Source: Phyllosticta citribraziliensis (Eukaryota). From it: 64,000 bases of DNA. The first letter of the stretch is position 1; every line of letters begins with the position of its first letter. A program made the position numbers and the translations under genes. The stretch is taken from positions 2,108,001-2,172,000 of the forward strand of contig NW_027117342.1 of assembly GCF_038025025.1 (NCBI RefSeq), in the 5' to 3' direction. Under the pieces are notes generated by a model. That model was given only the letters and a program-made list of their open reading frames with translations. It had not been told where the DNA came from and did no database searches. Below are positions 4,301 to 19,300 of the stretch, in pieces.

Positions 4301-6173
4301 GACACCACCGACTGACACCGACCGGCTGTCTGGTGTCACGCACCTCGCCTTTGTTCGGGCGCACCGTACGCAGGACGGACGACGAACGCACGTAGTGTGG
4401 GCAGGCAAGTGTCCAACCAATGTAACGCGGACCGCGCGGACGGGACTGAACAGACAGACGGGCGTCGGATTCGGACGACGGGCATACGTCGTCGCTATGC
4501 TTTCTTTCATGCCGTGGTGGGTTGGTTGCACTCACCGCCGGCGCCGGTGCTGTAGTGAGTGGTGATGATGGTGTTGTTGATTTGCTTATTTTCTTGCTTT
4601 CTTGCTGCTCACGAGGAAGAGGGAGGCCATCGCGTCGCGTCGCATCGCATCGGTTCTCGTCTGCTGGCGCATGTCCCTTGGCCATGTTCGCATGGATTGA
4701 GTCGTACCTCTGGGGATGCGGGCGTCCCTCGTCGGCCCCTGCGTCACTGTGCTGCATCACGATACCCCAGCCATATGGCCCTACCTACCTACATTTGATG
4801 CATGTATTTGTCTATGTCACAGACGAACCAAGTAGTGCATTTGCTTGGAGCAAGCAAGAAGGCAATAGAGCAGAGCAGAGCAAAGCAACAATTCAACCCA
4901 TCTCGCGCCCGCCGCGCCACGCAGATAAAACAAGGAAAAGTCCCCATGCGAGCGGTAGTAGTAGCAGCAGCAGCAAAAATGCATTCATTCCACCCACACC
5001 CAAGAAACAGGTAACCAACCGATCAACCGCCAGCCCTTTACGGTCAATCAATCAATCAATCAGTCGCGTGGGTGCACGCAAGCGCCAATCCTCCCTCCTC
5101 CTCCTCGCAGATCTGACAGCAGACAGAAAGACGGCGTGCGTGCGTGCGTGCGTGCGTCCATGCCCTGATCTTCCCGGCCGGCCGAGCTGCATCTCCCTGC
5201 CCTACCCTGCCCGCCTTTTCCCCCCTTGCTTCCGAACCGAGCTCGCTCGCGAGCGAATGACTGGCGTGCAGTGCAGGCATGATTCCAAAAAGGCGCCGAC
5301 CAATCGGCGTGGAGGGAGGAGGGAGGGCAGCGAAGAAGTGGTGGGTGTGTGAGTAGTAGGTAGGTTGACAACCCACCTTGATGGAGAGAAAGCAACCTGG
5401 AGTCGGCGTCGGCGTCGGCGTCCGTGGACTTGCTCTTACTAATGTAGACTGTCTGGTTGGCTGCCCGGCTGGCTTTGTTTGTGCTGCGGCGGTGCATTGC
5501 GTTGAAAAAGCAGGAACAGCAGGAACGAGGACGAGTGTTTCGAGGGCGTTTTGAAGCTGCAGCTGCCCAATCGACCATGACTACATACCTACCCAAGATA
5601 CATACGTATCCACGCATCGACAAGGAGAGAGAAAGAAGGTGGGTCGGCGGGCAGCATATGCCACCCCATCCCCCTCCTCTCTTCCTCTCCTCATCCCCAT
5701 GGATGACGCGAAAGCATTGCCCCGTCCACAGCGTCCTCAGAACCAGCACCGCAGTGCGGCGAATCGGACCCGCAGGCCGCAAATGACGAGCGGGAGGAAG
5801 GGCAAAGCTGTGCGTGTACACGTCTACACGTTGTGGGGTGGTCGGTGGCCATGTTTCTCTCCCAAACCGCAGACGGGGATGAGGATGGTTTGATATTCCC
5901 AAGGTACCTACCCCCTACCTACCTACCTACCTACCTGCATACGGCAAATTCCTCTCCCCTCCTCACCACGTAGCGTGGACCGGGACCTGGAATTCCTGGA
6001 CGGCAGGGAGGGTGCGTTGCCAGTTGCGGCATTCGCCGTCGATGTCTGTAATTTTTGTCGATTTTCTTTTGTGGAGTTTTCTTTTGTTTTTCGTGTCTTT
6101 CCCCTGTCGGATTGCGATTGCGATTGACGGCGAGACACGTGGAGGTGCCGTGGGGTTGGTGCCGTGGTAGTGT

Positions 6174-6195
6174 GGGGGGGGGGGGGGGGGGGGGG
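6174..6195. repeat. poly-G tract (22 nt)
   Basis: Homopolymer seen directly in a non-coding region. Confidence 0.95.
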
Positions 6196-9100
6196 CAGCT
6201 GTGTTGGACCTGGGAGGCGGGACCTGGTAGATGTAGGAACGTTACCGGGAATTGCAGATGGGCAAGGGGAGGGGAGAGAGGAAAAAGCAGTGCGGAAGAT
6301 TCGCTGTTTCGAAGGAAGGTGCCGTGGATGGTAGTAAAGAGAGAGTGGGCTAGAGGGAATGGGAAGAGAAGGAATGGAGATGACGGAGACGAAAGAGAGT
6401 TGCAGTAGAGTCAATTCAATAGGACCGTTCGACGTACAGTCTAACGCCCCCTCCTTCTTCCCCCCCTTCCTCCAAAGCCCCATCCATCGCCACCCCGCAG
6501 AGCAGCCGACCGTACCCACCTACCCGATTTCTCAGCATTTACAATCACTCCTCCCCTCCCCTCCCATCGCATCGAATAAAAGCCGACGGCAATCACGTTC
6601 CACCGCGTCCATCTGCTGCATCAAGCCACGCCACACGACGCCGCGCCGCGTCCTGCAATGTCATGCCCTCACCCATTACCGTCCGTCTCGCATGGGCATT
6701 GCGTCGCGTTGCATCTCGCACACACGTGCGGGGCGGATAGGCACTGTCTGCCCGCAGCATACATGGCTACGGACAAGCGCAGGCAGACAGAAAGGCAGGC
6801 AGGAAAAAGTGGAGACTTTGCCTATCCATTTGTGTAGATCGGTGTTGTGGATATTGGTTCGCCGACTCGTATTTGCTGTCGATGAGGCGGGGAAAAGCAT
6901 GGAGAGGGGAGGGAAGAGTGAGGCGGAGAGAGAGGAGAAGGGGCGCGGGCAGGGGGGAGAGCAAGGAAGGGGAAGGGGATATGACGTAGCCTAACATGTA
7001 TCCGGCATGCCTGACGCTATGCTATGCCATGCCATGTTATGCAGTGCGGAAGCTGTGCAGCGGATGGGATATGGGAGAAGGAGGCATGAGGAAGGGGTGG
7101 AGGTATGTGTGAGGTACGGAGGTAGACGATCAAGTGTTGTGTAGATCCAGAGGAGACTGAGAAAGACGGGGGAAGAAAAGAAGTCCTGTACACGTACGCA
7201 GCTCTACAGCATCAACCACAGAGCTCCCTCCCACCAACAAACTCACCTCACCCAATTACATAGCGCCGCAGCACCCATTCAACCTACCTACATTTCCACA
7301 TGTCAACAGTCGTACTACAGACGAGCAAAGACGGGACGGAGCAACGCAGGCAGACCAAGCCAGACCAGTCCAGCCTGCCCGCAGGACACATGAATACGTA
7401 TGGTATGTGCCTACCCGTCCAGAACACGCACACATACAGGTAATAAATGCAGCGTCGCGCGTGTGGGCGGCGTGCCTGATCGGCACGGCGTGGCGGCGGT
7501 GATGCGCTGCGCTGCGCGAGTGCGGGAGAGAGAGCAAGCGAGTGAGCCAGCGAAGCAATGAAGCAGGTGTTTGGTTGGTTGGCGAGACGGACGAGGCGTC
7601 GACAGAGGAGGGAAGGAAGCTGCGTCGGATCGGGTCCGTCCATCTTGCTTGCCTGCCCGCGACGATCCTCTCTCTCGCCAGACCAGACCCACCCAGTTGA
7701 CGACGCGGTTGCGGACCAAGTGCGTACAGTACACACTGGCCAATGGCCAATGCACCCGCTCATCGCCCATCGCTCGATCTGCTCCTTTTGCAATGCGTGT
7801 GGCTGCCAGAACATCGCTTGGCTGGCGCGGGTGCAGCGCGGATCCGATGCTCATCGCCAGACGGTATTGGTTGGGTGGGGCGCGCGCATGCATGCATGCA
7901 GCCTACCGAGATGGCGGCGCCGGTCGGTGGAGTAAAGTAATGGAAAGACTGGAGATGGACAGAGAGGGTATGCAAAGTAGAGGGAGGGTGTATAGATTGT
8001 GTGTTATTATTATGATGTCGGGCAAGATATTCGGTGGCCTTGGATGCAGTGAGGTGGTGGTGGTGGCTTCGGAGGGCGCCTGGGTAGCGGCAGTTCAACG
8101 AAAGACGGTGCCAACAAACGCTCTGAGACAGGGTGACGAAAGAGAATCAGAGTGGAGACATAGCTGTGAGAGGAGAGAGGAGGCTGGCAAAGTTTTTCGG
8201 CCCCCGCGCGTCGCAGGGCAGGGCAGGGCACAGAAGACGTATTACGTCGGTTGTGGAGGGACCCGAGGCACTGGGGCGCGGGCTCCCTGTCTGCTTGGGT
8301 TGGGTAGGTTGGTTGCTGTGCTGCAGGCGACGCGTGCCGGCCTCGTGTTTTGCTTCTCGCTGTCCGACGAGACGGGCCCCCTGCCAGCCATGTATGTCCG
8401 TGTTGCTAAAACCAGTGCCTGACAGACGAGAGAGCCCTCATTTTCTTCCAAATCAACTGCCCACTTCCCCCCAGAGAGCTAAACAGGGACTCGGTGCAAG
8501 CGCTTACCTCACTGCCTGCTGCACTGCACACACCCCCCAGCTCGTCCAGCTTGCATGATCGCTCTTTGTTACTGCTCACTCACCACGGCCAGTTTTGCTA
8601 CAACAACGACCATATTAACCACGCGAAGGGGGAGCTAATTCTGGAGGCGGGCCGCAGTGGCCGCCGGATCCCCCCTCGCAGCTGATTGGTTCTATTCGCA
8701 GCAGCCGGCGGACGAAAAGCTGTCCGTCGCAAGAAACGGGGCAAAGAGGTTAAGCGCTGACGGATTGGGCCGGGCTGCGAAGTGCTCTAGAACCCGGCCG
8801 CGCACGTTGGAGGTAGCTGTCAGCCCCATCAAGTGACCACCACCGTGACGGCCGGCGACAGACAGGTGACGGGCCGAGAGAATGGTGATCCCTCTCTAGC
8901 ACCACCCAGCGACATGGGCTCCTATTTTGCCTAGAGTTGAACGGATAGCCAGGGTAAATTCCCATCGTCTTTTTTCAGCGCGGCCAACAACCAGCTGGCT
9001 GGGTACGTTGCCCAGCGCGGCGGTAAGGAGACCGGTGTCCGAAAATTCCTAGTAGTCTGTCAGCAGGACTGGTCTGGGTTGACGGTCGTGGGGGCGGCTG

Positions 9101-11839
9101 TCTAGCGTTGACAATCATGGTCATGTCGCCCTACTGCATGAAGAGATTGCAAGGAATGGGGACCCCCGTGTGTCGAGTGCATGTAGATGGGATCGAGAAT
9201 GGGGCGCTCAATGGCATTGCAGGCGCCATGGAAACGACCATGTGCAAAATGCAGCAGGCGCGTCGAGATCAAAGATGTTGGAATCAAGGAACTTTGCATT
9301 GACCCGCCCGTGGCCGGCGGCGCCGCACGGATCTCGGTGAGAGCGGCGAATCGTCTTGTCGTCTTTGCTTTTTCTCGCTCCTCCAATTCCTCTGCCTTGC
9401 CAATAATGAGTGGAGGTGGAGGGGCCAGGCGGATGGGTAGGCGACTGGGGTGCGGCAGACGGGCCGCAAGTTTCCTCATTGTTGGGCTTCGAAAGGGTCC
9501 GGTCTAGTCTGCGGTCGAGGTGCCGCCAGAGCCGTGCCCAGTGCATGTTTCCCTGTCGAGCCGTGTGCTTCGCCTCGACGGGCCAGACTGGGTTTGTTTC
9601 ATGAGCAATGCCGAGTCTTCGTTCATGATTCGGGTGCTTTGGGAGGCCGGGTGCGTGCCGTACGTCGACGGTAAGGACGCTGGGATGGCGAGTTGGCGCA
9701 ATGGTGGGGAAGCGGGAGAAAGAGGAGGAAAATAGAATTTGTGTGACGTGCGCACCATGCACGGTCTATTGGTCTGATGTAAGTAAGCACCTTGAGACAA
9801 TGGGGAAACGGTGCGCGAGGTGCAGATGAAGGATGAAGAAGATGTTTGTCTGTTTTTAGCAACCGTCATTCATGAGCGTTTCGTCTGGGTGGAGAGAGCA
9901 GTCGGTCGGATGAACATGTCGCCTGTCAGCTCGCCGTTGGTGGTGAGAGCAGAGTCAGACGAGTGCGGCACGAGTCTTGTCTGGTCTGCGAGTGTGAGGG
10001 GTGACAGTTGGGGAACTAGGCCTACCCCATGGTGCGGTTCCAGCGGTACGAGCCGTCCTGCTCACCACGCCGTCGGTGCCGCCACGGAAAATTCTGTTCA
10101 GGCTGCCCTTGTCTTCCAGATGGCCTCAGCCACGGCGCACGGCTGATCTTTCTGCAAGGCGCCTCGTAGACTTTGGGCGAAGCGCTTGGGCAAACTAAAA
10201 GTCGACCCACGCTTAGCTCTTTGGCGGCAAGCTTGCGATGCCCTGGGCCCAGTGGGTCGCGGTGCGTGCGAGATGCGGTCGGAGAGGAGACTCTTTTGTC
10301 CATGATGCAAATTGTTCCACTTTCGCGCAGTCGAGAAGAAAAGGGGTTGCGACGCGGTGGGACTTGGGATTGATGGAGTCGTCGCGACGTGGAGAGCGGA
10401 GTGGAGCAGATACGGAGGCGATCGCCTTTCCTGATTCGGCATGAATCGAGACCCATGGGCCAAGAGGTGATCAGGGGAGACCAGGACCCTGACTAGCTTT
10501 TGGTCTCTTGTGCATCGGCGTCTCCGATAAGACCGTGGTGGTGAGCATTTCTCCGCCGCCGTCTTCCTTGCCACTTGCACTTGATAGCAAGCGATGGTAT
10601 GACGGCGTTTGTGGTGCTGGTTGGAGCGCGTGTGGCGAGGCAGCGCAGAGGCGTAGCCACACCACAGGGCGCGAGAGGGATGCCCTTGTAGCGGCGTCAG
10701 CGCCGGGCCCCGCGAAGCTTGGCAGTCCCCAACCTAGCCCAGCGCAGACTAACCACCCAGTCAGGCGGGCATCCCAGTGCCTCCAACTGCCCACGGCCAC
10801 TCGACTCGACGCCACGATACAGGGCACGGCCGGGGAAAGCAAGCGGCGGCGGCGTCAGGAAGATGCCGGGGCAATGGGAGCCAAAGCTCGCCTCACGTCT
10901 GCGTCCGTGGAGACATGTTGTCCAATTGCTGCGCCTTGAATTGCGCGAGCGACGGCAGCGCGGTGGGGTGCAAGTCAGGGGTACCTTTTCCAATGCGTCG
11001 AGGACCCTTGTTGGCCCATGTTTGGCTAGCCTGGCAGGCCGGAGCTGGCTCCTTTGGCCGTTCTTACCAGCTGCGCGGGCTCTGGCTTCCAAGCGAAGAG
11101 AGGCAAGAAAATCGTGAGCGACCGTGTCGCAATGACCCACGCACGCGCGGGATCAGCGTCCCGTCCCAGCTGAGGGGATTCTGGGATCAAAAAAAGACCC
11201 GAGCAGAAGGCATTGGCTGAGGAGCACAAGAGCCTCATCGACGGCTTGCCTAACCGATGAAGCCAAGATGATGAGGTTCCATGGCCGTGGGACTCGACCT
11301 GGAGTGGTGCGAGCAGGTGGGCAAGAGTGGCGGCGTTGAGAGGCGCGAGTCTGACAGCAAGTCGTAGCGACGACCATTCTTCTCGCAGTAGCGTGGGTTG
11401 TTTGGTCAGGCGTTTGGCCGCGTCAAAGTCTATCGGAATGCCAAGTCCACATTCTGCGTGGTCTGGCCCACAATGGCATTGCGAGTCGACGGGCGTGATC
11501 AGCAGGAATTGCGCAGACATCTGGCGCAGGCGTGGTGTTGAGCGAGGATTAGGTGCCGTGTGATGCTATTCTAAATTTCGGACGATTCAGCATGACGACC
11601 TGGGCTGAGGTGGAGTGGAGGTGCTTCAAGGCGGCCGTCTGGCTGGTGCTGGGGTCAAGGGTCAGCGAGGGGACCCTTGGGACAGGTGGGCGGGAGCTGG
11701 CGCCGCCGTCGCCAATTCCGCCAAACCGGCGCAGCCAACGGAACAGCAGAGGCGACGGGCCACGTTGGTGCGCTGGTCAGGCACCGGGCAGGCATGCATG
11801 GCAGGGCAGGGCAGGGCAGACAAAGAAACGAGGGCAAAA

Positions 11840-11859: not shown

Positions 11860-13404
11860 AAGGGAAAAGCGAAAGCGAAGGCTTGCCCAGGCGAAAAAGC
11901 ACTGCTGGGGTGCATCGGCTGTCTCAAGCGCGCTCCCACACAAAACAATGGGCCCAAAGAAATGCTGACTGCCAGCCGAGGGCAAACGCTGAGAATGTTT
12001 CGAGGAGCGTCCCTGACTTGAAGTTGACAGGCGTCGTACGTATACGGGCATGTTTGGGGACGACGAAGGATTTGCAACCATCCCTGTCGGGATTTCCATG
12101 ACCGCACTCAATGTGAAGATCAGGCAGCGAAGCCATGTGGAAAAGGACACAGCAGAGGGCCAATTTTAGTCGGGATTCTGTAGCCGATGCAAAGTAGGGA
12201 CAAACAGACAGACAGCGTTTGACGGATGGCGGGCAATGGTGGACGCCATTACGGAGAGTCGCAGCCAACCAGTGGGCAGAGACGGGGCAAGGAAGGCAGT
12301 GAAAGGAATAATGACACGGAAGGTGAAGATGGGATGGGATGGGGAGCGATGCGATGCGATGCGATGCGGGAAACGCAGCATCCGCGCCCGGCGGGTCGGT
12401 GCTGTGATGGAGGGTTACATGAGTTGGTCGAACAGCCCTATCCAAGACGGTGGAGAAGAGGGAAACGGAGCCCAGGGGACATGGGACCCGCGAGAAGGGC
12501 ACGAGGCGCATGGGGGCACGTGATGTCGGTGACGACATGAGGTGCAATGAGGGACGGGAACCAAGTGAAGGCCCAGATGGAGGCACGCAGGTCCCGACAG
12601 CGACAGCGACGTGGGAGACGGTGAGCTGGGTCGGAATAGGGCTCGAGCAGCGTCACGTCACGCCGCGTCGCATGCACCCGGATTGGGAGAATGCTATCAT
12701 TAGGCAAGAATCACTTTGCTGCCATTCCATTGCACAGCCACGGCCAGACGGTCGCACAGCCATCGGAGCAACGACACGACACGACACGACACGACCGACA
12801 CGACTGGACCGACATGGGCTCCGGACGACGCGGCACTCGGCCTTTCCGGCTGCCAGGATCGCTGGACAACCGCTTTGTAGGCAGCAGACTGCGAGACTCC
12901 CAAAGCGCATGAGGGAAGAAGCGAAGAGGGGAGAACCAGAAGAGAAGACACTGGGCCATGGTACCAGCCGTTGGTTATTGGCATTGGCAGCACAAGCCGA
13001 AAGCAGCAAGAGCAGACGAGGGTCGAGTATTGACCGCAAGCGGGCACTCAGAGTCCCTGTGGCCTGTGGCCTGTGGCCTGTGGCCTGTGGATGCCCCGGC
13101 CAAGTGGCGCATCCCCCACTCCACTGGCTCGGAGCGCGCGATCGCGCCAGGGACTGTCAACCACCATGACTTCTTCTGCCCTCCGCCTGTCTCTCCAATT
13201 CTCCTAGCCTCCCTCCACTGCCTCCGGCTCGCACTGCACAAGCGTCCCCGTTTCTGCTGACTTCCGATCCATACATTACGCTCTCGCAAGATATAAGCCC
13301 GTCCCCGACCCCGACCCCGACCCCGGCCACATCCCTCGCCCTCGCCCTCGCCCTCGCCCTCGCCATGCCCATTGATCCAACCTATTGATCCTCCCGTCCG
13401 CCCG

Positions 13405-13407
<3 letters not shown>

Positions 13408-13444
<37 letters not shown>
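13408..13444. repeat. poly-C tract (37 nt) upstream of the C2H2 TF
   Basis: Homopolymer preceded by a TATA-like TATAAG (~13293) and (CCCGAC)n and (CTCGCC)n repeats. Confidence 0.95.
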
Positions 13445-13447
<3 letters not shown>

Positions 13448-13714
13448 CCCCGTCCACACCAAATCCAAGGCGCCCGGTCCATCTCGCATCACCCACCTGG
13501 CCCCATCCCTCTCAGCCTTCTTCAAGGTGAAACCCTCCCTCCACCCCATGCAAAAACATCACTGCCCGCACCCATACCTGCTCTGCACACCTCACCCACT
13601 CCCGCTGCCGTCTTATATTTAGTCCCTCGCCGCCCCAATCCTCCACCACCATCCATATGCTAACCAACATTCCCATCCAGACGGTTCTCTGATCTCAGAG
13701 GCGTCCCCACCACC

Positions 13715-16304
13715 ATGGTCTCTTACCTCGCTGACTGCCACGCCCAAATGCCTCCCTCCGACTTTGACCTCTATCCTTCTCAAGACTACTCGGACCTGCT
13801 CTCCCAGGCCCACTATCCTCCGAACAACCCTCACCAATTCACCTTTGGACAACCTCACCAACCCCACCACTCCTTCTCCGCGCCATTCAAGCCCACCAAC
13901 ACAAACGTCTTCGCCATGAACCCCTTCAACAGGCAGGGCGGCTTCCTCCCCTACTCCCCCGTGGCATCACCGGCTTCGGCAGCACAGTCCTTCGACGTCT
14001 GCCCTCCGCACCTGTCGTCCGCTTCCGAGTCTGGCGCCTCTGTCCACAGCACTTCCTCGTCTGCCCAAGCCTCGCCCTCGATGAACCAGCAGTTCGCCGA
14101 ACCCTGGAGCGTCTTGGGCCAAGGCCTCGGACTTGGCCCGGGCCTGGAAATGCCCGAGTTTGCCAGCTGCGGCTTCGAGTACGACACCATGGTCGCGACC
14201 GACAAGATCTCGGGCTGTGTGGGTGAGTCTGCCAATTTTTCTTCGCACTCGCAAGCAATCTCCTCCTCTTCTCGCTCCGCCGCATCTCCTTTGCGTGCTG
14301 CCTCGTCGGGGCCTGCCCCCTTTCCCGCTTCAGTCAGTCCACGTCAGAGCAGCCCTGCAAATAGCACGGCCTCGCCAGCTCCAATCAGAGAGGACGAGCT
14401 GTTCAAGACTCCGACCACGCCGGCATCAGCCATGGTTTCTTGTAGCCCGTCGTCTGCGTCTCCTTCTCTGCAGTCCAATCGACGTCCTGTGACGGCAATG
14501 GCTGCGGGTCGGGGCCGCCGAAACTCCTTGCTTTCAACCCAAATCTGGCCTAGCGCGGGAGCGGCCGAGCTCGCATCATCCCCCACGCTCTCGTATCAGG
14601 CACAAGAGTCGCCTGCCAGTCTTTCTTCGTCTCAATTTGACTCTTCCTGTCGGTTTCCTCGCCTTTCCTAGTCCCTTTGTCTAGTCTTTTGTCGCTTTGG
14701 TTTTCCTGGCTTGTATTTTGTTCTAACACGCTCGTCTCGCAGACCCCAACTTGATCAACCCTTTCCAATCGTCCGCTCAATTCACCACCTCGCCATATCC
14801 CGATTTTGCTACTCCATCGCTTCCTTACCAGGGCTTCGTAGAGCAGCCCCCTTCTCCCGCTCCTTCCAACCAATCCGTCCACAGCCACTCCGTCTCTGAC
14901 TCGAGAAGATTCAAAACTTCTGGGAGCCAGTCACCCTACCTCCACAACAACGCCTTCCAGCCCTACCCCGCTTACAACCCTGCTCGCCGCCCCTCGGTGG
15001 CATCCATCCAGTCAAGACAGTCGCAGGGCAGCCGTAGGAGTGGAAGCTATGAGCTTGACGAAGAGGCCAGGGAAAAGGGACTCTGCCCCATTGAGGGCTG
15101 CGGGCGTGTCTTCAAGGACCTCAAGGCGCACATGCTCACCCACCAAAATGAGCGTCCCGAAAAGTGCCCCATCACTTCCTGTGAATACCACCTCAAGGGC
15201 TTTGCACGCAAATACGACAAGAACCGACACACCCTGACCCACTACAAGGGTACCATGGTGTGTGGCTTCTGCCCGGGCTCCGGTAGCGCGGCCGAAAAGT
15301 CGTTCAACAGGGCCGACGTCTTCAAGAGACACCTGACGGCTGTGCACGGCGTCGAGCAAACGCCACCCAATAGCCGCAAAAAGTCTCCCTCGTCATCGGC
15401 CAAGCGGACGCACCCAGGCAACAGCTCCGCTGCCGGAACCTGCTCCACCTGCTCCGTCACCTTTGCCAACGCCCAAGAGTTCTACGAGCACTTGGACGAC
15501 TGCGTGCTGCGTGTGGTCCAGCAAGCCGACCCGGCCGAGGCCATCAACCACAAGCTCCTGTCGAGCGTCGTCGACGACAAGAATGTCAAGGAGACGCTGG
15601 ACAGGCACTGTCTGTCTCGTGACGCTCCGTCGACCACTTCGAGCTTTGACGAGGACGACGACGAGGATGACTTTGACGTCGACGACGCCAATGACGCTAC
15701 CTACGGCGTGCGCCGGAGTAAGCGTCAAAAGCGCGACAGCTTCAATTGACAATCCGCACGTTCCCGGGGTGTCGGTTCGCACGCCGGGGACGGCACTTCC
15801 AACATCCAACCCAAGCCCCTAGGTGAGAAGGGCAACGCCAACGCAAGAAGCGGACGCATCGGCCTCACGCTGTCCAAAGGCGGCGTGACGCTGCCGACGG
15901 CGACGTCGCGCAAGAAGCGCAAGCACTACCCGACGTCGTGGGGGTGCCCGGCGGAGCGCATGCGGATGAAGAAGCGCGTGCTGTGCGTGTACGACGGGCA
16001 GCGGCGGCTGTGGAAGGACGACATGATGCTCAACCAGGACCTCGAGGTGCGCATCACGCTGCCAGGCACCGGGCCCGACGGCCGCAAGATGTGGGTCACC
16101 GACCTCGACGTGCAGACGCTCAAGCGCGCCGAGGCGCTGCATGCCATGCCCGAGGCTGACAAGGGCGAGAATCGCTGGGACAATGTCGTCGGCGGCGACT
16201 TGGACCTTGTCGACGCTGCAACGCCGACGCCTGCCACCGCTGCATTGTCGCTGCCCATGCATTCCGCATCTTCGTCGTCGTCGTCAGCTACTTTCGAGCT
16301 GTGA
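13715..16304 (+). CDS. C2H2 zinc-finger transcription factor with alternative 5' splice donors and a C-terminal extension behind an in-frame TGA
   Basis: ATG 13715 (CACC-ATG-G). Intron with acceptor CAG 14742 (branch TTCTAAC) and donors at 14223 or 14649. Fingers: CPIEGC..HMLTH, CPITSC..HTLTH, CGFC..HLTAVH and CSTC..HLDDC. First stop TGA 15747-15749; the same frame stays open to TGA 16302-16304. Confidence 0.85.
15747..15794 (+). other. Candidate stop-codon readthrough element: TGA-CAA plus 3' GC-rich hairpin
   Basis: TGA CAA TCC GCA, then a stem in which 15759-15767 (CGTTCCCGG) pairs with 15784-15792 (CCGGGGACG), extended by GTG/CAC and CG/CG pairs. Confidence 0.55.
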
Positions 16305-19300
16305 TGGCCTTCTTCCTCCAAAAACAATTGTTTGACTGTTTGTTGTTGTACTTGTACCAACCCATCTCTTACCCCCCTCTTTCCCCTCTACCTAATCCCA
16401 TCCCTTCTTTCATTACATGTTTCCACCATCACCTCCTCGGCCATGTCTCCAGGCGGAGTGGATCAACTGCTTGTTGTTGCAAATTCGGTTTGGTTTGGTT
16501 CCAAGTGTCTTGTTGTGTGCGTTTGCGGGCGTTTTTTATCCGGGCAAGGCAAGCGAAACGGGATTGGGAAAGGGAACAGCGCAATGGCGATACCATGTGT
16601 GGACGGCCGCTCCATGAAATCTGTTTTTCCTCTTTAGCTTTGTTCGCGTCTGCTTTTTTCTGTTATTGTTGTTATCATCGGTGGGCGGGTCAGTCTGTCA
16701 GTCTGTCTGCCGGTACGAAACGCTGTGCTTGCTGGGCGGCACACCTTCGACCGACGGCAGCAACGACGACGACATGTTGTTTGCGGTGGCGTGGCGGTCA
16801 TTTGTCCTCTCTGGCTTTTGTCCTTTTTTGGGGGTTTGCGGTCTGCACTTAGAGTGGGTGCGATGAGCTGCTTGACACGTAGGCACGTTTACGGATGGAT
16901 GGACATGAAGTTATGCGTGTATGCATGCATGGCTTCAAATACTACTACAAATACCTCACAATGAACGACTACAAAAAAAAGACTACTCCAATCCTTTACT
17001 CTCCCTTTTGTGCCCGGCGGCCCTCATCCAACAACCTGTCTTCCTACTCCCCCCCCTGGGTCCCTTCCCTCCATCACCCCAGCTATACTAAGCTATGCGT
17101 AGGAAGTCTCCCCACCCCTCCCTGTCCACTGACCTACTACCCCCCGCTCGATGCCTACATTAACACGTCGCACATATCGAGCAGTCAGCATGGATGGGTG
17201 GGGTAGGTAGGTAGCGCGGGCGGCCGCGTCCCTGACTGCTGCGAATCGGGAAAGCGGCGGCAGGCAAGATCCTTGGCGTCGGACGGCAGGGCAGGGCAGG
17301 GCAGGGCAGGGCAGTGCTGAAACGACGGGCGGGCCTGCCTGCGATGCAAGCCCCCTGATTTGGATCGTTTGGTTGTGTTGCAGTGTAGTCTACGTTGTGT
17401 GGTGATGATGATGATGATGCAAGAAACCAAAGAATACCTCGCATGAAGTAAAGGACGCAAGCAAAGGCGCGACAGTCGGAATCCACGACCACGAGTTTGG
17501 TCGCGAAAGCGCCCGCCGTCCGTCTGGTGTGCGGCGATGAGGAGCAGTCAAACAGAGTCCTTGGGGGATGTTGTATAGCTTGCGTTTGTGCTGTCCTGTG
17601 TCTGCTCTGTTGGTTTTGTGGAGGGGTGATTAAGCTGTGATTGGGGAAGGGAAAGGAAGGAAAGCTACTGAGCAGCAGTGTGGAAGGAGAGTGGTGGATT
17701 TGAGTGTCGTTGATGAGTGATGAAGGAGTGGGGCGGCGTTGTTAAGTGATGCCGTAGGCCGCTTTATGAAGGCAGTGTTTTGAGTCTAAGCGTGCATGGA
17801 GAGGCAGAGTGACGTTGACTCCGAAACGAAAAGCAGAAGTCATCTGGCCCGCACCGTCCCTCCCAAAAGTACAGGTGGCTGTTCATCTTCCTGCCCGGGC
17901 GAATTCTCTCGCCGACTCTGGAGTAAGAGTAGAGGTTGTGCGCGGAGTTCATATACTTTGACCGTAGGGCGGAAGAGACAGGCAGGCACATGCCATCGCT
18001 GCCTTGCGCCTTTGCCTTTGCCTGTGCCTGTGCCTAGCACAAGATCAGGAGGGCGACGTGAAAGCGGCGGCTTGTGACAAGCACCTGCTCCTTCTACTGC
18101 CCACGAGCTCAATCCTCCAGAGGTATAAAACCACTCTCATTTTCCTTCCTTTCTCTTGCTCAAGAGCAGAGTGCGCGGCACTGAGCGGCGTACCAGGGAC
18201 AATTCTGACTGTTTCGTGGAAAAGTCAGGTCGCTGAACCTATACTTTGCGTTGTGCCCACACCACCACTTAATTTTTCCGAAGCCGCGTCTCTGATTTTC
18301 AGGAGTTGAGCGTGATGAGGATTCAACAAAACGATGCTGACGAGCGAAATCAAGTGTTGTTGGAGAACACACCAATATGCGATAATGAAGATATCCAGCA
18401 TTCTTCGAGCTGGCAGAAGACGTAGACAGCAAAAATACAACGAGTGACTTGCATAGCTGCGTCGATTTCTAGGCGCCCGACACGACACAGTAGCAGTGTC
18501 ATTCACTTCTCAGAAGTCTCCCTCCGCTCTGACTCCTCGAGTCAATCGAAACTTTTCGAGAAGCGAGCTGACGGCTCTTATACCTCGAGCTGCCGGGAAA
18601 GGGAAGGCAAGCACATGCGACGCTCTATCTGCGTACGCACGCGCTCTGGTTTCTCGTCATGTGGCGGCGCTGGAGCCTGCGACGCACATGCGGTATTCTG
18701 CTGAGCATGTGAGGTTTGCTTTGCTGCTCGCGTATAAACATCTCGTACTTCTTCCTCTCAGGTTGTCTTCGATGAGCAAGGCTTTTGTGTGCGATACCTG
18801 GATCTGCACCCACTCCGGTTTGACTTTTTTTGCTTGTCTTCTCGGCTTCAGTGGATGGGAAGGACGGGGTCAGATTGGTGAGAAGTTGACTGCCAGAAAA
18901 GGAAGTCGGCGGCATGCAGCATCACAAGAAAATGGTGCACTTCTTCAGCACCACAGCTTCATGGGGGCAGCGATGGAGCATTCATGACGCAGGCCGAGCC
19001 GGCCACAATTTCCGTTCGCGCACAAATAAAATGGCGAAGGAGACAAGGACCAAAAGAGTAGGAACAAGTTGTCTCTATGTAGTTCTCATCAATTGATGTC
19101 GTGATGGAAGATGGAGAGCATGTACTGCCGACGCCGAGCCTTCACGACTCTTATATACAGAACCAGAGAGGTGATCCAGTTCGCTCCGGTGACATTCACA
19201 TCCACGTGGCTTTCTACGCTGACTAGAAGCATGCGCACCGCGCTGTGCCTGGGCCCACGCGGTATCACTCATTTCTATCTTCGAGGCTGTATAAAAGCGC

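Follow-up and report, generated by a model that had tools for sequence, protein, structure and literature searches.

We report that a two-exon zinc-finger gene of the fungus Phyllosticta citribraziliensis very probably uses programmed readthrough of an in-frame UGA stop codon to make a short and a long protein isoform from one mRNA. The gene lies on the + strand of a stretch of 64,000 nucleotides (nt) of contig NW_027117342.1 (RefSeq assembly GCF_038025025.1, positions 2,108,001–2,172,000 of the forward strand); this whole stretch is here called the window, and all coordinates are positions within it. The UGA, at 15747–15749, is found in spliced mRNA; its position, its context, the reading frame beyond it and the offset of a downstream hairpin are conserved, and the 184 codons that follow appear to be under purifying selection. 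This evidence supports the readthrough proposed in a preliminary description made from the letters of the window. We also think it likely that the arrangement is an ancient recoding switch, common to Dothideomycetes and lichen-forming Lecanoromycetes, in which UGA-CAA-YYA and a stem–loop give rise to two zinc-finger isoforms. The features on which the argument turns, with the support for each, are as follows.

13748–14222, + strand: first coding exon; its translation equals the public model P0001 exactly, and its end is set by the spliced joint in RNA contigs.
14223–14742, + strand: intron 1, 520 nt, GT..AG; genuine, with its joint in RNA contigs, and the positive control for splicing.
14743–15746, + strand: exon 2 up to the putative leaky stop, where the short isoform would end; from open reading frames (ORFs), P0001 and the Cys/His columns.
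15718–15822, + strand: 105-nt 'intron' of the public model, in which P0001 joins RRS to EKG.
15747–15749, + strand: UGA in frame, the candidate leaky codon for readthrough; from ORFs, RNA contigs and TGA in 52/52 contexts.
15750–15755, + strand: hexanucleotide CAA TCC; relatives have CAA YYA (the CARYYA motif), and the last base in the window is C.
15759–15792, + strand: stem–loop beginning 9 nt past the stop; from its fold (z = −3.21), pairing in the alignment and the count of offsets.
15750–16301, + strand: proposed readthrough extension of 184 codons; from the ORF, homologues, frame and the ratio of non-synonymous to synonymous substitution rates (dN/dS).
16302–16304, + strand: terminal stop of the putative long isoform; from the ORF, with codon periodicity gone downstream.

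The start codon, ATG at 13748, is that of P0001; the models of relatives start at an upstream ATG at 13715. Exon 2 contains C2H2-type fingers at about 15084–15359 and an acidic tract. The zf-C2H2 Pfam profile scores 24.5 bits there, slightly below its cut-off of 25.2; the Cys/His columns of the fingers are invariant in our alignment A1, and the sources label relatives 'C2H2'. As the preliminary description had it, the zinc-finger ORF ends at the TGA (an open frame of 340 codons at 14727–15749, ending ...RRSKRQKRDSFN-TGA), and the same frame is open again from 15750 to 16304, for 184 codons. By itself this open frame proves nothing, because in this G+C-rich DNA chance frames of 100–230 codons occur in other frames nearby; it is lifted above chance by comparative evidence, namely the conservation of the stop, the frame, the dN/dS, the context and the stem.

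The strongest alternative to readthrough is alternative splicing. Here, a 105-nt in-frame intron, GTAAGC(15718)..TAG(15822), would be removed from a minority of transcripts, and only those would encode the long protein. The sequence is real: there is a GT at 15718 and an AG at 15821–15822, removal would keep the frame, and P0001 has exactly the 15717/15823 join. The preliminary description named this intron as the competing model and proposed a search for its junction in RNA. We compared Logan contigs from four runs, which drop rare variants, with window positions 14000–16500. Run X2 is from the same species, with no differing letter; X9 is from a relative about 92% identical, and X6 derives from an RNA library of plant material. 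In three of the four runs, intron 1 is spliced out, with 14221/14222 joined to 14742/14743. The depth of this joint is 4642.9 in X2, against 691.7 for an intron-holding contig, and 2728.5 in X9, against 258.3; record 15 of X6 (2,374 nt) also skips intron 1 and then runs unbroken to 16282. Intron 1 is also partly retained in RNA, its intron-holding contigs having about one-tenth of the spliced depth (691.7 against 4642.9–6603 in X2).

The 15717/15823 joint, by contrast, is not among the joints listed in any of the four runs. After splicing intron 1, the X9 contig (2,112 nt, depth 2728.5) is continuous from 14742 to 16422. In X2, the depth over 15722–15842 is 7462–9588, at least that of the flanking exon contigs (6012–6603), and the UGA itself is covered at a depth of 9588 with no differing letter. 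The contig chain of X2 breaks at 15720/15722, 15802 and 15842; the last of these coincides with a loose end that we take to be sequencing-adapter sequence. The same picture emerges from a distant lineage, in which the contig L036 (2,853 nt) matches the genomic L035 at 99.8–100% identity in three blocks and lacks L035 positions 1571–1678 and 2210–2503, which are two introns; the last block, of 2,065 nt, is colinear and includes the TGA and the extension. The pairs L007 and L003, and L004 and L008, repeat this pattern at about 94% identity. Thus, the UGA is present in mature spliced mRNA, both in the species of the window and its relatives and in distant lineages, in which twice-spliced contigs retain the stop.

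The splice itself also fits poorly with the conserved protein. The peptide SRGVGSHAGDG, encoded just past the stop in the window, matches the coding SRGVVSHAGGG of orthologues and would be lost through the 15717/15823 join. Moreover, AG is absent between 15750 and 15813, so any canonical intron removing the stop would also delete this peptide. Splicing would, in addition, leave unexplained both the invariant TGA-CAA-YYA and the hairpin at a fixed offset. Although contigs could miss rare isoforms, and those of X2 break at 15720/15722, we consider alternative splicing improbable: no joint is listed, depth is undiminished and, as set out below, the boundaries differ among relatives.

Public gene models show how the join may have arisen. 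The extension used as a query returned 541 homologues, the best of which is a 643-residue 'hypothetical protein [Phyllosticta citribraziliensis]' (P0001), 100% identical over 86% of the query. Its sequence runs from ...GVRRS directly to EKGNANARSG..., so the public model removes exactly 15718–15822. Two models from sister species bypass the stop by other joins (TYG|PLGEKG in P0002 and TYG|GNANAK in P0003), and models from Botryosphaeriaceae and Pleosporales omit yet other stretches around it. Such inconsistency of boundaries is a typical product of gene predictors stepping over an in-frame stop, and the 15718–15822 'intron' is most likely an annotation device that bypasses the stop, not a real major intron. 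The wrong-looking models fall into two classes: long ones that skip the stop with species-specific predicted introns (P0001–P0009, P0012, P0013, P0017 and P0027) and short ones truncated at the UGA, which are P0123, P0164, P0173, P0175, P0180, P0192, P0197 and P0198. Over the part that they cover (69–88%), the public Phyllosticta models are 84–91% identical to the extension in the window.

We then turned to the conservation of the stop, for which the preliminary description had suggested aligning orthologues. Among new matches to the upstream frame, 104 of 109 end 85–110 residues past an FYEHLDDC motif, without the C-terminal domain, in a search that admitted only proteins of 187–595 residues and so favours short forms. 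They include Phyllosticta-like ORFs ending at the stop (P0122, ...RDSFN; P0124, ...RDGFN, on a contig of 2,120 nt that has the length of record 10 of run X5 and may be identical to it) and named short-form models from Macrophomina, Alternaria, Parastagonospora, Exserohilum, Periconia and Oleoguttula (Mycosphaerellales), as well as from the Lecanoromycetes Xanthoria and Flavoplaca. The named short forms thus come from Pleosporales, Botryosphaeriales, Mycosphaerellales and Lecanoromycetes, and by this comparison the position of the stop is conserved across two fungal classes. Other lineages have sense codons at the site; examples are the Venturia-like P0024, a genomic ORF, and ORFs that resemble named models from Leotiomycetes and Chaetothyriales.

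Metagenome contigs were scanned with patterns from the finger region only, and the best 80 of 347 matches, which represent nearer kin of the window and not random fungi, were taken as loci; they have 57–76% protein identity to the window. A single in-frame stop lies 89–103 codons past FYEHLDDC in 71 of the 76 loci that could be assessed, and is missing from five; four further contigs end too early. Two of the stop-less loci, L005 and L006, have CTC-CAG-TCT (Leu-Gln-Ser) at the site, and in L065, L066 and L075 the stop and the codons following it are deleted. The long form appears to be constitutive in these lineages.

The letters around the stop are more constrained than a protein would need. 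Across 52 distinct contexts of 99 nt, the window included, the stop is always TGA, never UAG, and the next codon is always CAA, whereas other Gln codons of these genes are CAA 132 times and CAG 230 times. The second codon is TTA in 21 contexts, TCA in 17, CTA in 12, CCA in one and TCC in one, the window. CAA is therefore followed by YYA in 51/52; the residue varies (Leu, Ser or Pro) while the third base stays A, which points to conservation of RNA and not of protein, and only 13.4% of Leu, Ser and Pro codons elsewhere in these genes end in A. Terminal stops in these genes vary (TGA 35, TAA 11 and TAG 1). The TGA-CAA context noted in the preliminary description is borne out, the full context in the window being TGA CAA TCC. 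Its description of a leaky 'UGA followed by C' needs amending: a C does follow the UGA, but the relevant motif is the hexanucleotide CAA-YYA, from which the window deviates at the last base.

This motif has precedents in print; the articles cited here by PMC number are represented by excerpts, to which our statements about them are limited. CARYYA was defined for tobacco mosaic virus and promotes readthrough not only of UAG but also of UGA (PMC3542737; the motif also in PMC5397192), and stem–loops about 8 nt downstream of a stop are known readthrough stimulators (PMC3542737). By the type I definition of viral readthrough signals (stop-CAR-YYA), 51/52 contexts match and the window, with CAA-UCC, differs at the final base. 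The codon that defines type II (CGG or CUA after UGA) is not seen in any context, as CAA stands there in 52/52. The type II stem–loop, which starts about 8 nt 3′ of the stop, does have a counterpart here, starting 9 nt past the stop in the window.

In the window, a spacer of 9 nt (15750–15758) is followed by a 9-bp stem, 15759–15767 with 15784–15792, and then a G.G mismatch, as the preliminary description had it; the inner helix, for which it gave five pairs, has four in the minimum-energy fold (15769–15772 with 15779–15782, one of them G.U) around a 6-nt loop. The 54 nt from the stop on fold at −27.8 kcal/mol (z = −3.21), with 0/200 shuffles as good. When the 70 nt past the stop are scanned for their longest unbroken stem (6 bp or more), it starts at 8–10 nt in 46/52 contexts, compared with 2/46 at the terminal stop and 15/260 in shuffles.

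Covariation, another check proposed in the preliminary description, was tested with the 13-pair structure from the fold of the window on the 52-row alignment A2. The cells are paired in 87.3% of cases, against 39.5–58.7% with the partners slid by 1–3 columns. Both sides have changed at nine of the 13 pairs, and cells with both-side changes number 41, against a shuffle mean of 11.5, with 0/500 shuffles reaching 41. The covarying arms include CCCCGG..CCGGGG, UCCCGG..CCGGGA, CCCCGA..UCGGGG and AACUCCCG..CGGGAGUU. One clade (L013, L015, L025, L027, L033 and L042) has neither the HPRGV..HxGGG peptide nor the usual arms and keeps TGA-CAA-YYA. A different hairpin, of the GGUGG../..CCACC type, folds in the L013/L015/L025/L033/L042 clade, starting 9 nt past the stop (about 12–40 nt past the TGA). 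An Rfam scan of 15600–15950 gave a noise match only (mir-598, E = 0.92).

Beyond the stop, the extension bears the marks of a translated sequence. It is in frame for 129–178 codons in 66 of the 67 loci with enough sequence. The exception, L019 (1347–1500), has the usual TGA-CAA-TTA and stem, followed by a 1-nt frame shift after 45 codons; the locus may be misassembled or a copy in decay. Pairwise comparison of 55 distinct extensions gives mean differences of 0.275, 0.200 and 0.507 at the first, second and third codon positions, and this periodicity ends at the second stop, the next 240 nt giving 0.558, 0.55 and 0.558. The median dN/dS of the extension is 0.208 (576 pairs), with 0.143 for the upstream part, 0.37 for the linker alone and 0.224 for the domain. 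The coding constraint that the preliminary description had suggested looking for downstream is thus evident, and by these measures the extension evolves as a protein under purifying selection, in frame 0. Among the indels listed for the RNA contig of a relative, those inside the extension are of 3 and 6 nt, and those from 16286 on are of 1–2 nt, save a 6-nt insertion at 16372.

The extension consists of a linker, an NLS-like (nuclear localization signal) basic motif, RKKRK (15909–15923), and a conserved domain of about 60–100 residues, YPxSWG...KKRVLCVYDG...RRLWKDDMML...TDLDVQTLKRAEALH. Homologues of the extension carry the precomputed label PF28332; searched against Pfam profiles, the extension itself matched no family at E ≤ 0.1. 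AlphaFold2, run with a 50-row alignment, gave a mean pLDDT (predicted local distance difference test) of 57.6, and only a four-strand sheet and one helix (residues 72–131) are moderately confident; a Foldseek search of the predicted model against the PDB gave no match at E ≤ 0.001. The best score in a protein atlas, 0.81 to ribosomal L4 clusters, is within the range of chance, and no lead was taken from it.

A second alternative is adenosine-to-inosine (A-to-I) RNA editing, stage-specific as in the sexual development of other ascomycetes, which would convert UGA to UGG (Trp) by editing of its third base, so that only edited mRNA would encode the long protein. Stop-loss editing is documented in filamentous ascomycetes, at sites associated with hairpins (PMC13123824). 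However, the excerpts of that article describe fungal sites that favour UAG, the A to be edited lying in the loop of a hairpin (PMC13123824), whereas here the stop is UGA in 52/52 contexts, a G precedes the target A, and the stop is outside any loop, 9 nt upstream of the stem. X2, a sample of unknown stage, shows no differing letter at a depth of 9588, with the limit that contigs hide rare variants, and the conserved CAA-YYA would be left unexplained by editing. We regard this explanation as very improbable.

We are similarly sceptical of plain termination, in which this genus would make the short protein only and the extension would be an untranslated relic or have an internal start of its own. 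In its favour, CAA-UCC in the window departs from the consensus, several public models annotate the short protein only, and translation of the extension is deduced from sequence comparison. Against it, the extension is intact at 184 codons, with the 84–91% identity to public Phyllosticta models given above, the indels listed inside it in the relative's RNA contig are multiples of three, it keeps frame with the upstream ORF in 66/67 loci and its dN/dS is 0.21. Nor could separate initiation make the conserved part, as the invariant YPxSWG motif precedes the first in-frame Met in 44 of 50 distinct extensions, including that of the window, where this Met is codon 70 of the extension and the motif is at codon 59, so that the Met falls inside the conserved domain. 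Plain termination is, in our view, very unlikely. Two further candidates were set aside: ribosomal frameshifting, because the extension is in frame 0, and selenocysteine decoding, since ascomycetes are not known to have the machinery.

Several observations weigh against programmed readthrough and temper our confidence in it. Ribosomes most likely do pass the UGA, but their passage and its efficiency are matters of deduction. Logan contigs lose rare variants and could therefore lack a minor spliced isoform, and X2 breaks at 15720/15722, beside the proposed donor at 15718, for no evident reason, so that a rare variant or isoform might be concealed there. For the relatives with RNA contigs, the presence of the stop rests on the ORFs P0122 and P0124 and not on the letters of X9, X5 and X6. 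The significance of the fold depends on the stretch that is folded: the 91 nt at 15740–15830 are unexceptional (z = −1.62, with 10/200 shuffles as good). The covariation counts come from related sequences, and tree-based tests of independent pairs, made for four base pairs, were underpowered (1.0–2.5 concordant and about 0 discordant changes; median P of 0.5–1). In the main clade, moreover, the stem arms encode the conserved peptide HPRGV..H[AV]GGG, and constraints on peptide and RNA are confounded. Finally, the window has the only hexanucleotide of the 52 without a final A, and given this CAA-UCC, readthrough may be weaker in Phyllosticta than in relatives.

Taking programmed readthrough as the favoured explanation, we propose the following mechanism. 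Most ribosomes would terminate at the UGA and release the short isoform, of about 490 residues, which carries the zinc fingers and the acidic tract. In a fraction, a near-cognate tRNA would decode the UGA and translation would go on in frame through another 184 codons, and the long isoform would gain the linker, the basic RKKRK motif and the conserved domain of about 60–100 residues. The signal would have two parts: the six nucleotides that follow the stop (CAA-YYA in relatives and CAA-UCC here) and the stem–loop, which begins 9 nt past the stop and would therefore be at the mRNA entrance of a ribosome with the UGA in its A site. By analogy with viral signals, we infer that both parts act as readthrough stimulators and that the composite works like a viral type I CARYYA motif combined with a nearby stem–loop. 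The hairpin might tune the ratio of isoforms according to conditions. As for the role of the long isoform, we would guess that its extra domain serves in entering the nucleus or in binding a partner.

Outside the gene, simple repeats lie upstream at 13290–13520, where a GC-rich tract reads as Pro, Gly or Ala-Leu runs depending on the frame, and a (GGCAGG)n microsatellite lies downstream at 17285–17315. No tRNA gene was found in the window.

The proposed signal resembles several known systems without coinciding with any of them. Its CAA-YYA, in 51/52 contexts, recalls the type I signal of tobamoviruses (UAG-CAA-UUA; stop-CAR-YYA) (PMC3542737); here, in contrast, the gene is a cellular one of a fungus, the stop is always UGA where natural type I signals mostly have UAG, a stem–loop is added, and the window itself has CAA-UCC. 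A leaky stop with a 3′ stem–loop starting 8–9 nt downstream is shared both with the benyvirus coat-protein extension (UAG-CAA-UUA and a compact stem–loop) and with the signals of type II in alphaviruses and coltiviruses (UGA-CGG/CUA and a stem–loop about 8 nt downstream) (PMC3542737). Unlike these, the host here is a fungus, the codon past the UGA is CAA and not CGG or CUA, and the stem is short (9 + 4 bp) and not extended.

Among cellular genes, the nearest likeness is to Ustilago maydis Tpi1 and other fungal peroxisomal isoforms, in which a cellular mRNA of a fungus is read through at UGA-CU(A), yielding an isoform that has a C-terminal extension and, with it, a new targeting property (PMC4207609). 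Those extensions are a few residues that end in a peroxisomal targeting signal of type 1 (PTS1), after the signal UGA-CU(A) (PMC4207609), whereas here a domain of 130–184 residues would be added to a transcription factor by means of CAA-YYA and a hairpin. The Drosophila genes for Traffic jam and the POU factor Drifter likewise yield two isoforms of a DNA-binding regulator by readthrough, according to the excerpts available; these are animal genes with different contexts. The plant eRF1-1 mRNA has a cellular stop in a CARYYA context (PMC5397192). In the excerpts of that article, its readthrough serves autoregulation and escape from nonsense-mediated decay (NMD) and, unlike that proposed here, adds no conserved domain (PMC5397192). 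Full-text searching, with subscription-only papers outside its scope, found no report of readthrough of the present gene.

For cellular genes, programmed readthrough has been documented well in insects and for a few genes of mammals. The fungal cases that we found in print, as far as the excerpts go, are short peroxisomal-targeting extensions (PMC4207609) and editing-based stop loss (PMC13123824). If our reading is true, a composite signal of the viral type would be known for the first time in a cellular gene of a fungus, and a whole conserved transcription-factor domain would depend on a stop codon that two fungal classes have retained, with a signal formerly associated with plant viruses. 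It would also expose a systematic annotation error, as the gene would be wrongly modelled in the many public fungal annotations seen here, which either end at the UGA or invent species-specific introns around it. What makes the case notable is how deeply it is conserved, how large a domain is added, that a cellular gene of a fungus has a virus-like composite signal, and that a widespread misannotation would be accounted for. The gene would provide a natural fungal system in which to study the cooperation of CARYYA and a hairpin on the eukaryotic ribosome, and it predicts two isoforms of a regulator, possibly differing in localization, in many plant pathogens, endophytes and lichens.

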